Positions 20,360 to 23,317 of a stretch of 23,317 nt of DNA are shown here, in pieces. Every line of letters starts with the position of its first letter. Within the stretch, counting starts at the first letter, position 1. Under the pieces are notes generated by a model. It did no database searches. It worked only from the letters and a program-made list of their open reading frames with translations, and had not been told where the DNA came from. The DNA is from Bdellovibrionota bacterium. Lineage in GTDB: Bacteria; Bdellovibrionota; UBA1018; UBA923. The position numbers and the translations under genes are program-made. The DNA is taken from the NCBI GenBank assembly GCA_040754655.1, contig JBFMCE010000064.1, positions 1 through 23,317 of the forward strand. The letters run 5' to 3'.

Positions 20360-23317
20360 TTGACGGAAACGATCGGGAACTGGGCGACAAGCGCACTTTT
20401 GGTGTGTGCGGTGTTTGGTTCTCTAAACGCCTATGCCGAAAACGACAGGCTTTGCGCGACTAAACCGAAGAACCAACTTCTCGCTCACGCCAGAATCCCG
20501 GATGAGAAACAACAAGAGTGGTTGAAGCAATACAGGGAAACGAAGAATCCAAAGTTTCTTCATCGTATTTTGGAAGCGAATATCCAGCTCATACAAATAC
20601 GAGCAAAACAAACTCGCAGGTGGGCCCGAGAACTGGATTTAGATGATCTTGTTGGCCAAGGCTCATTGCATGTGCTCGAGGTTCTTTCGATGCGAAAAGA
20701 CTCTATTGAACAGATCTCATACTTCTTATCGGATTCACTAAAACACCATTTCTTTGATTATGCCTCAGAGCAGCTTTCTAAAAGTTCCGGTGCGGGACGA
20801 CAACGCCTTTCAAAGGTCTCTCAACTCAGAAAAACCATCGCCGAATTCGAACTCCAAGGAAAAAAACCTACGGTGAACCAACTGGCAGCAAGGTTGGATC
20901 TCCGACCGAATGAAGTGCTCGACCTGATCGATCTCGCAAGGTCCCCCGTCGAGCTTGATGCTCCTATTTCTACACTAGATAAACGCACCAGGCGAGATGC
21001 CCATCACGACATCGTTTCTGCGAACCCACCTGAACCTGACTCCGAACCTATTCACGCAGAAAAGGTTGCCTGGGGCAGCGCTGTGCAAGACATCTTAGAT
21101 AGAAATGAACTCAATGGGAGGCCTCTCACTGAACTGCAACGAGCGATACTCACCGAAAGAATTTTTGTTGACGATGACCATTCTGCCCTACGACTCAGTG
21201 AAATTGCCGCCAAACAAGGTGTACCAAAAGATCGGGCGACTAAGACAGCCACTCGCCTACGAGCTCAAATAGTGCGGCACTTGCGCAACTCTGGACTTAA
21301 GCTCCCGAATGTCGCAAGCGCAGCACCAGTGAAAGTTCCAGGCGTACTTGGGTGGATAGAGAAAGCGCTTGAAGACGGAACTATTCTCAATCCGCCGCTT
21401 ACCGAGCGGGAAAGGATTCTCGTGACACGCCACATATTGGCGGATGAGCCTATGCTTTTGAAAGATCTCGCCACAGAACTCGGTCTGCACCCTGCGATAC
21501 TTGTCGACAACAAGAGCGTCTTACTTTTAAAATTCAAGAACCTTTTGGAGCAGAACGGGATTGTGGCGCCCAGAGACTTTGATATTGAATCCGCGGTGCA
21601 TTTTGAAGCGCGTTACCGAGACCCCCCTCTCAAAGAAATCGTGAATAGGATTCTATCAACAAATACAATTGACGACAGGGTCCTGTCTTCAACAGAAGGA
21701 CGCATCGTTCACAAACACATTCTTACGCCCGCACCGGTGCCATTGAGTCAAATTGCCACGGAACTAGGGAAAGCAGACGTTGACCTTGAGCGTACCAAAG
21801 CATTGCTCACCCTTGAGATCCAAAATGCGATCCGCAGAAGAGGCTTTTCATATTCAGATGGAAAAGCGGTAAGACCCAAACGCATTGCAATCGATGAAAC
21901 TCAAAAGAAAAGCTCGGGTGACTTGATCAGAGCCGCAATCGAACAAGAGCGACTTGGACAAGTCTCTCTGTCTAAAGTCGAAGTCGAACTACTCAAGCAG
22001 CGGATTTTTACAGATTCTCCAACAAAATTTAGCGATCTTGAGAAAAAACTAGGCCAAGATCACTCAACTTTATCTTTCGTGGCAAGAAAGCTGCTTCTCA
22101 AGCTAGAGGGCCACCTTCTCGAGAACAGAGTTCATGAGCTTTCGAGCTTAGACATCAAGACCCTTGCCGCGTTCGAAGCAAGCAATCATCAAAGGCATGA
22201 TTTCACGAGCATTCTTGGCAAAATGCTCGAATCAAAAAAAATCGGAGCACGTTCTTTAAGCCCTCCGGAACTCTCAATCCTTCGAGACCGCATCGTCACC
22301 CGAAAACCTGTTGATGACGAGGTCTTGGCAAAGAGCTTAGGCTTTACGCCAAAACACATACGCAAAGTTGAAACGAAACTACGAGACGAAATTCAATCTT
22401 TTCTCAACCCCAGAAAACCTACAGAGCTCTTGCGAAAACTTATTCTAAACCCCAAACAAATTGAACTTGAGCTCAATGCTACAGAAATGGCTGTTTTTAT
22501 GAATTTGGTCGATATCGATCCTCGCTCCCCAAAAGAACTTGCCGAAAGGTTGGGTTACCTCGAATCCTCAGTGTATCATGCTAAAAAAAAGCTTTTATCA
22601 AAACTCAGGAGCTACCTTGAGAGTCACGGGGCCGTCCTTGACCCATCTGCTGATCTTGAAGAAGTCATACATTATCACGTGATCTTCAACTCACCCGACC
22701 ATGAAGCTACAATCAATACGGCCATCAAAAATCGTGTTCTTAATGGAAAACCCCTCGACGAGGTTGATTTTACGATCTTAAAAACAAAAATTTTTACTCC
22801 AGTTCCTGTTGATTACAAGGAACTAGTTCGCGAGACGGGACTTTCTAACACCGTACTTTCCGATCGGGAAGCCTTACTGCGGGCACGTGTTACAAATCAC
22901 TTTTATCGAGAGAGTGTGTCTTCGGCCAAAAAAACGCGTGACCCCTTAGGCCCCTCAATCCGGTCAAGAATATCTCGAGCACTCGAGACAGGAACTCTCG
23001 GAGACGAACCTCTAACTGCGGTCGAAAAAGCAATACTTGAAGATAGGCTATTCACGGATAAGCCTAAACCGCTCAGTGAGTTGCTCGTTAAAGCCGGCCA
23101 AAAAAGAAAAGAAGCTTTTGCCAAAGAGGAGCCCTTTTTACTTGAGAAGGTCGAAACCTGGCTATTTGAGCAAGGAATCCCGCCCGAAAAACTTTATAAC
23201 ACCGTATCATTCCTCGAATTTGAGTACCTCAATCAATATGACAAAGACATCGCAACTTTCCTTACTCGAGCAGTAGCGACACAAGAGCTTGACGGGCACC
23301 CTCTAAATGAAAGATTA
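20360..23317 (+). CDS. Giant sigma70-like protein with tandem region-4 HTH repeats (3' partial, at least 986 aa); absent from the ORF track
   Basis: Manual translation of + frame 2 has no stop from 20231 to the window end. Probable TTG start at 20360. Region 2.1/2.2-like [14 protein letters not shown]...[10 protein letters not shown]; region 3-like [15 protein letters not shown]...SPVELDAPI; then repeated L(T/S/N/D)xxE/Q/D...I/L...P...L...G units. Confidence 0.85.
21083..23317 (+). repeat. Protein-level tandem array of at least 9 sigma region-4-like units (72-97 aa period)
   Basis: Anchor Leu codons at 21125, 21398, 21683, 21968, 22256, 22472, 22754, 23012, 23303 (LTELQ, LTERE, LSSTE, LSKVE, LSPPE, LNATE, LDEVD, LTAVE, LNERL). 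No obvious DNA-level identity. Confidence 0.8.

Follow-up and report, generated by a model that had tools for sequence, protein, structure and literature searches.

Sigma-70 family proteins are held on RNA polymerase (RNAP) in the holoenzyme by regions 2.1 and 2.2, region 3, the L-D-A-P motif and region 4, and residues of regions 2.3 and 2.4 serve recognition and melting of the -10 element. The single region 4 recognizes the -35 element, docks on the beta flap and is the point of attack for many regulators; to our knowledge, sigma factors carry one region 4. Extracytoplasmic function (ECF) sigma factors have no region 3. Certain ECF sigma factors carry C-terminal extensions, which the abstracts and passages that deal with them describe as fused regulatory domains or captured unrelated sequence, with no mention of region-4 copies (PMC3426412, PMC7826278, PMC7671368). 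Here we analyzed a 23,317-nt stretch (the window) that makes up the whole of contig JBFMCE010000064.1 from a Bdellovibrionota bacterium (assembly GCA_040754655.1), in which an initial annotation had pointed to a giant sigma-70-like protein with a row of region-4 helix-turn-helix (HTH) domains at positions 20360..23317 of the plus strand. It is very likely, in our estimate, that this is a real chromosomal gene derived from a sigma-70 factor with sigma-32-like kin, that it carries regions 2, 3 and 4 in order, and that at least seven further tandem copies of its region-4 module, composed of a pre-helix, helix 4.1 and an HTH with a long recognition helix, were made long ago.

Positions 20360 to 23317 form a single open frame of 986 codons that is free of stops up to the contig end, as the initial annotation had read it and as the listing of open reading frames (ORFs) bore out. 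Upstream, the same frame has no stop back to 20270, which makes 1016 codons in all. The chance of 986 stop-free codons is about 3e-21, calculated as (61/64)^986, and the competing ORFs across the interval encode 62-90 aa each. Since the window is the whole contig, the gene is cut by the contig end and its stop codon lies beyond it; 20360..23317 is thus a partial coding sequence for a sigma-like protein with a region-4 array, counted here from TTG 20360 and truncated at its 3' end. In-frame alternative starts are TTG 20399, GTG 20402 and GTG 20411, the last of which was chosen in the gene caller's version (P0002, 969 aa) and corresponds to residue 18 of the 986-codon frame. A start at TTG 20360 leaves 9 nt to the listed start of tgt, and the choice between this codon and the later in-frame starts is not settled.

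Residues ~40-317 aligned end to end with ordinary sigma-70 proteins of 250-480 aa, mostly sigma-32-like. An exhaustive phmmer search over 1.84 billion representatives gave 59 matches at E ≤ 0.001, one of which was the protein itself and another a metagenome protein, P0004, discussed below; the other 57 were proteins of 210-602 aa. Those matches whose best stretch reached about residue 310 aligned to residues ~40-310. A Pfam scan of eight matches detected both Sigma70_r2 and Sigma70_r4 in seven, the eighth being P0004. For 9 of the 12 top sigma matches sigma-32 was the best NCBIfam model, and four of these nine passed the sigma-32 subfamily cut-off.

Profile comparison with hhalign identified a sigma region 2-like domain at residues ~40-150 (20477..20809, plus strand): residues 30-150 matched the region-2 block of 56 sigmas with a probability of 97.1% (E 6.5e-11, 87 columns). 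Regions 2.1 and 2.2 were recognizable in outline, in a stretch of 13 residues and in LDDLVGQGS, to be set against llDLIQEGN of the sigmas. Region 3 occupies residues 155-223 (20822..21028, plus strand) and was detected by Pfam PF04539 (Sigma70_r3) at 33.9 bits against a cut-off of 25.3, the sole Pfam match above cut-off. The L-D-A-P motif is retained at the end of this region, within V-E-L-D-A-P-I at residues 197-203, and residues 152-313 matched PHROG 351, 'RNA polymerase sigma factor', with E 4.8e-10. The Sigma70_r3 match, the region-2 profile and the size of the 57 other phmmer matches upheld the proposed sigma-like N-terminal part, and the core peptides quoted for it were found as given: IPDEKQQEW at 46-54, LDDLVGQGS at 94-102, a 13-residue peptide at 167-179 and VELDAPI at 197-203. 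The label 'RpoH-like' held for the nearest relatives, as judged by their best models, but not for the protein itself, which reached 14.1 bits with the RpoH model TIGR02392 (cut-off 323.1) and 13.1 bits with NF005693 (cut-off 315). As judged from sequence, the protein is a relative of the sigma-70 family by descent, with sigma-32-like factors as its nearest kin, and it may act as a sigma factor.

The array was delineated by anchoring on a P-L-T/S-x-x-E motif, which occurs at residues 255, 346, 441, 536, 632, 704, 797, 884 and 980; successive anchors are 91, 95, 95, 96, 72, 93, 87 and 96 residues apart. It comprises eight complete units of ~72-96 aa, after which a ninth begins, with its first 37 residues present. 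Unit 1 (residues 240-317, 21077..21310, plus strand as for all units) is the core's own region 4, over which the sigma alignments extend to about residue 310, and the array thus consists of copies of that domain, with seven complete copies and one cut copy beyond unit 1. Scored against profiles from which the unit in question had been left out, unit 1 obtained 32.5 bits. It is followed by the region-4-like unit 2 (residues 317-406, 21308..21577, 44.5 bits), unit 3 (residues 411-500, 21590..21859, 45.6 bits), unit 4 (residues 508-596, 21881..22147, 51.4 bits), which was the unit modelled below, and unit 5 (residues 603-689, 22166..22426, 51.0 bits), which is joined by a short linker to unit 6 (residues 682-763, 22403..22648, 24.4 bits), the most divergent of all. 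Unit 7 (residues 768-858, 22661..22933, 48.3 bits) and unit 8 (residues 855-944, 22922..23191, 52.8 bits) are again region-4-like. The start of unit 9 (residues 950-986, 23207..23317), consisting of a linker, the pre-helix and H-P-L-N-E-R-L, is cut by the contig end; its profile fragment at 961-984 (E 0.12) was not significant alone.

The leave-one-out scores thus ranged from 24.4 to 52.8 bits for the eight window units and from 28.3 to 45.7 bits for three units of P0004, and shuffled units, 200 shuffles being made, reached 9.8 bits at best. Units 5 and 6 as cut for scoring share 20 residues, which slightly flatters both of their scores. Against a profile built without it, unit 1 scored 26.6 bits (E 2.3e-10). 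Self-BLASTP returned the identity match only and no internal repeats; the repeats emerged through motif anchoring and profiles. The count of eight complete region-4-like units and the start of a ninth, as first proposed, was reproduced, and the two unit peptides quoted as examples belong to units 2 and 8.

In the unit alignment the copies share 11-27% identity with unit 4, and no repeat was detected at the DNA level, where Tandem Repeats Finder gave no rows and only three chance-like pairs of 15-16 nt were seen. Divergence of the copies, together with the lack of a DNA-level trace, indicates that the duplication is ancient; the lack of a DNA-level repeat also makes a collapsed or duplicated assembly unlikely, and the assembly artefact against which the initial annotation had cautioned found no sign in the DNA. 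Fold-determining positions are kept in all copies, and the surface of the recognition helix is different in each. A linker helix with an H/A-F/Y-E/H motif is present at all four of the junctions 2>3, 4>5, 6>7 and 8>9, as VHFEARY (21596-21616, before unit 3), AAFEASN (22166-22186, before unit 5), IHYHVIF (22667-22687, before unit 7) and LEFEYLN (23213-23233, before unit 9), and at none of the four junctions 1>2, 3>4, 5>6 and 7>8. In P0004 the linker, LHYEALL, is present at junction b>c and missing at a>b, and the BLASTP segments keep the same register. Such alternation would fit a super-repeat of two units; odd and even units did not fall into two classes by their core domains, the observed value being reached in 751 of 5000 permutations.

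We then compared the extra units with region 4 by means of a profile of units 2-8 and the three P0004 units, from which unit 1 was excluded, and blocks cut from the sigma matches. With the region-4 block of 55 sigmas, hhalign gave a probability of 97.5% (E 5e-12, 67 columns, score 60.6). In the controls, region 3 gave 23.5% (E 8.6e-4, over 22 columns of the HTH only), region 2 gave 0.1% (E 0.39, 16 columns) and reversed region 4 gave 3.9% (E 0.011, score 16.3), and none of 30 column shuffles of region 4 exceeded 0.9% (E ≥ 0.06, score ≤ 12.8). When the unit profile was aligned to the full-length sigma alignment, the match fell on region 4. The pattern L..RE..I...R...(D/E)EP.TL.EL...G is common to the units and sigma region 4, and full-length sigma alignments end at residues 300-314, i.e. 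over unit 1. An AlphaFold2 model of unit 4, built from an alignment restricted to the nine units of the window protein, had a pLDDT of 80.8 and a pTM of 0.68 and consisted of the pre-helix, a short hairpin and three more helices, the last of them long. In a Foldseek search of the Protein Data Bank (PDB) with this model, 40 of the 41 rows listed were isolated sigma region 4 constructs or sigma-containing RNAP complexes, including SigA region 4 chimeras, the -35-binding domain in the RslA complex and the sigma-32 holoenzyme, with probabilities up to 0.97 and, for isolated domains, TM scores by target of 0.47-0.74. Weak sigma-factor labels were also obtained from PHROGs for unit 6 (PHROG 1740, E 0.0026) and for one P0004 unit (E 0.0043). 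From the profile-profile comparison, the way the array continues from unit 1 and the neighbors in fold, we take the units to be diverged copies of region 4, in agreement with the massively amplified domain 4 on a sigma core that had been proposed from the sequence.

P0004 (640 aa) was the only relative of the array among the 1.84 billion representatives (phmmer E 4.6e-9). BLASTP aligned it collinearly with the window protein over three units (E 5e-18 and 1e-10, 25% identity). It has three units of the same layout with an H-Y-E-type linker and is a singleton on a 5632-nt contig. S-L-D-A-P precedes its array and is the only sigma-like feature detectable there; neither Pfam nor profile comparison detected a region 2, a region 3 or any Pfam domain in it. 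Residues 529-640 of P0004 form a 112-aa C-terminal tail unrelated to the units, in which two copies of a Trp/Cys/Pro-rich motif are visible by eye. Word-indexed searches returned only the protein itself among proteins of near length, nothing among longer proteins, and only P0004 when P0004 was the query. With the protein as query, GTDB representative genomes yielded 67 stretches that fit the pattern and no relatives, the phage and plasmid collections held no match to the array, no PADLOC model matched, and the ESM Atlas gave no hit at ≥ 0.9. Full-text searches of openly accessible papers, main texts only, likewise found no description of a sigma factor with tandem region-4 domains. The layout thus appears to be undescribed and very rare, and the literature and sequence libraries give the initial annotation no reason to revise its remark that the architecture was not recognized as a described one.

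From the arrangement of its domains, the protein is probably an RNAP-associated factor with a multivalent HTH array. As a whole, the best explanation, to which we assign a probability of about 0.45, is a sigma-derived protein that docks on the RNAP core and whose array contacts upstream DNA. The parts that hold a sigma factor on RNAP are the best kept, and on that basis the protein would still dock on the core. Contact would be made by the scaffold of regions 2.1 and 2.2, by region 3, by the L-D-A-P motif, which would be the start of region 3.2 and a docking element, and by unit 1, seated on the beta flap. Retention of L-D-A-P both here and, as the one sigma-like feature left, ahead of the array in P0004 speaks for constraint on RNAP-facing parts. 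The array would then lie along the DNA upstream of the -35 position, where it could make multivalent contacts with successive DNA turns or with repeated -35-like elements and serve as a built-in set of upstream DNA readers. For HTH modules in a row whose recognition helices differ, such contact would be the most natural task; as the mechanism, considered by itself, multivalent upstream contact is a tentative proposal drawn from the sequence. Loss of the W-W pair of region 2.3 argues against a standard promoter-melting sigma factor; it could mean an unusual mode of -10 recognition or melting, or no promoter opening at all, with the protein instead tethering or occluding polymerase at its sites. 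A more specific form, in which each unit of a 'poly-HTH' sigma would read about one DNA turn upstream of -35 and the promoter region would extend over ~80 bp or longer, is rather a long shot. Such a factor would be a bacterial counterpart, built from region 4, of modular recognition of the zinc-finger or TALE type.

Several observations weigh against the reading as a DNA-contacting sigma derivative. In the core, Pfam Sigma70_r2 had no match at E ≤ 10 in the whole protein, and the general sigma-70 model TIGR02937 reached 33.0 bits against a cut-off of 42.9. Region 2.3 is degenerate: the 16-residue stretch at 119-134 has lost the W-W pair of YA.WWIR, and the -10/melting pattern Y..WW.R is absent from the ten residues that align with stYA.wWIR, the consensus of the 57 matches. 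Failure at the family and RpoH cut-offs, together with this region 2.3 feature, sets the protein outside every named subfamily. In the array, none of the nine units matched Pfam Sigma70_r4 alone at E ≤ 1, and on the whole protein this model left a trace at 256-292 (E 0.35; 10.9 bits, cut-off 24.1). The Foldseek E-values of unit 4 were weak (best 0.28, none ≤ 0.001). Compared with PDB sequences, the unit profile had its top match in the winged helix of RuvB (0.007), with sigma F lower down at 0.47, which is not decisive. Unit 6 resembles TrmB/MarR more, its best Pfam match being TrmB (9.7e-5, below cut-off). Beyond the single unit, a four-unit AlphaFold2 model (units 5-8; pLDDT 71.7, units ~70-87 each, pTM 0.49) does not fix the mutual arrangement of the units, and against the PDB it had no meaningful neighbor (all E > 0.5, TM ≤ 0.18 by query). 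As to DNA contact, the R-E-R-V-R-Q-type recognition motif of the sigma matches is kept in no unit, and the net charge per unit runs from -4 to +7 and is not uniformly basic (unit 2, -4; unit 7, -2); in favor of such contact, the recognition helices, which differ among units, have several basic residues each. Finally, P0004 without region 2 implies that the family may not need to dock on polymerase. Pfam matches to winged-helix regulators of the MarR/TrmB type concerned unit 6 only and stayed below cut-off (HTH_20, 23.0 against 27; MarR_2, 22.1 against 27; TrmB, 20.1 against 25.6).

The gene lies in a housekeeping context. It is divergent from tgt (19181-20350, minus strand), the first gene of the opposite-strand row tgt-yajC-secD-secF-recJ; genes for RNAP itself are absent from the window. 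Among 599 confirmed matches of the window Tgt, the best 80 share no more than 59% identity with it, and in a quick single-gene tree it took a long branch outside a six-row Bdellovibrionota clade with support 100, so that this tree lends no support to an origin in that phylum and does not place the phylum; from these sequences, the organism seems to be without close sequenced relatives. By tblastn, none of the best 80 tgt loci encodes a relative beside tgt, and the best E of the unit profile there, 0.064, was the region 4 of an ordinary sigma. The GC content at third codon positions (GC3) of the gene is the lowest of the 18 genes in the window (0.44, compared with 0.50-0.64), and its codon-use correlation is 0.66, as would be expected of a gene that is foreign, little expressed or under weak codon selection. 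Elsewhere in the window, five ORFs of 129-655 aa had no Pfam match at E ≤ 1e-5, four of them on the minus strand (10909-12876, 3016-4041, 6640-7119 and 10520-10909) and one on the plus strand (13-1074); the 655-aa ORF is the largest unexplained gene of the window. The start of argS (plus strand, 4856) and a divergent TPR gene (minus strand, ending at 4915) overlap by 60 nt (4856-4915), and at least one of the two starts was probably called too far upstream.

The N-terminus has a hydrophobic stretch at residues 12-26 that ends in A-Y-A and is followed by E-N-D-R-L-C (20393..20455, plus strand), as noted from hydropathy, with a maximum of 2.5 at residues 12-22, and from its likeness to P0004. 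It is translated only if the protein starts at or near 20360-20402. From its sequence the stretch might serve as a signal peptide, tether the protein to the membrane or form a pro-sequence. In P0004, a similar hydrophobic stretch ends in L-A-A and is followed by Q-R-D-K-N-C, a resemblance seen by eye. A terminator-like hairpin with a T-rich run lies at 20391-20409 (plus strand), inside the 5' end of the frame and just before GTG 20411; the two terminator-like hairpins found in the region are within the shuffle expectation of 1.0 +/- 1.0. No sigma-70-type promoter was found in a scan of 19900-20700.

The losses in the core and in the recognition helices are also what one would see if the units did not bind DNA but served as a protein-binding scaffold or decoy, presenting surfaces that are gripped by anti-sigma factors, activators or the beta-flap tip and thereby soaking up or clustering these partners, or holding several regulators on one polymerase. 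Disappearance of the -35-contacting motif of the sigma matches from all units, the neutral or acidic charge of several of them (unit 2, -4; unit 7, -2), the degenerate region 2.3, the lack of a detectable region 2 in P0004 and the many Foldseek neighbors that represent region 4 in complex with WhiB proteins or RslA would all suit such a role. HTH arrays, however, usually bind nucleic acid, the neighbors are housekeeping genes with no partner gene visible among them, and the unit surfaces differ, which speaks against a single common partner; on balance we regard a scaffold or decoy as unlikely. A self-regulated factor would place the function in the core instead: a working alternative sigma with a fused regulatory extension, in which the extra copies would compete with or cover unit 1, or the surface that binds core, and be released by a signal, much as C-terminal extensions act in some ECF sigmas. 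Alignment of regions 2, 3 and 4 over their whole length with sigma-32-like proteins is in line with this, and fused regulatory C-terminal extensions are known in ECF sigmas from the relevant passages of PMC3426412, PMC7826278 and PMC7671368. At least eight copies far exceed what masking needs, however, region 2.3 is degenerate in the very core that should work, and P0004 retains the array without region 2, which together make self-regulation distinctly unlikely.

The hydrophobic N-terminus raises the question of export or membrane tethering, in which the protein would carry a signal peptide or pro-sequence and either act outside the cytoplasm or be held until cleaved, as the Bacillus pro-sigma-K and pro-sigma-E are held at the membrane until cleavage. 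With TTG 20360 as the start, residues 1-26 contain a hydrophobic core (maximum 2.5) and close with A-Y-A, P0004 has a similar stretch with a charged motif ending in Cys, and the gene's GC3, the lowest of the 18, would also be compatible. The start is uncertain, however, and the gene caller's choice of 20411 removes the stretch; there is no basic n-region, the resemblance of the N-terminus to that of P0004 is a visual one only, and no secretion-system genes adjoin, SecDF and YajC being general housekeeping. This makes export or tethering improbable as an explanation of the whole. In its bolder form, suggested by the hydrophobic N-terminus, the protein may be exported and delivered into another cell, where it would interfere with transcription. 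That the gene is decaying or non-functional, or an artefact of assembly or gene calling, might be argued from the occurrence of both family members as singletons on short contigs, from the degenerate region 2.3 and from GC3 and codon use atypical for the window. Against it stand 986 stop-free codons (~3e-21 by chance), fold-determining positions kept in all units of two proteins that are ~25% identical, and the lack of DNA repeats to cause misassembly, and we consider it highly improbable. The preferred reading remains that of a sigma-derived, core-docking protein with an upstream-contacting array.

At least eight copies of region 4 in one protein have no counterpart in the literature or sequence libraries searched, except for the three-unit P0004. 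The weight of the finding is limited by its rarity, with two singleton contigs, and by the missing C-terminus. Should the array read DNA, promoters would be specified in a novel manner and the array might offer a modular scaffold for DNA binding; should it bind proteins instead, RNAP would carry a sink for regulators of a novel kind.

Among described proteins, RpoH and the group 3 sigma-70 factors share with residues ~40-317 the order of regions 2, 3 and 4. The protein differs from RpoH in its length (at least 986 aa compared with ~285), in its seven or more extra copies of region 4, and in region 2.3, which is without W-W; in addition, a motif that we take to be the RpoH box is visible in P0003, whereas none was seen by eye in the protein. 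The nearest architectural precedents, as far as the passages on C-terminal extensions go, are the ECF sigmas with fused extensions (e.g. ECF41), which likewise combine a sigma-70 core and extra C-terminal domains in one polypeptide; ECF sigmas are defined by regions 2 and 4 without region 3, whereas region 3 is present here. MzaA of the MZA anti-phage system (726 aa, NF041931), compared by name only, is also a large sigma-70 protein with extra parts, and NF041931 is a secondary match of the ordinary sigma matches, but the protein itself misses NF041931 and the PADLOC models, and its neighborhood is not defence-like. In the C-terminal four winged helices of SelB, DNA- or RNA-binding modules in a row read a longer target, a likeness in principle without homology to our four-unit model (1lva, E 0.56, TM 0.14-0.17). 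The Myb and Pipsqueak repeats of eukaryotes are likewise tandem DNA-binding modules. The present array differs from these and from SelB in that its units derive from sigma region 4 and are carried on a sigma core.

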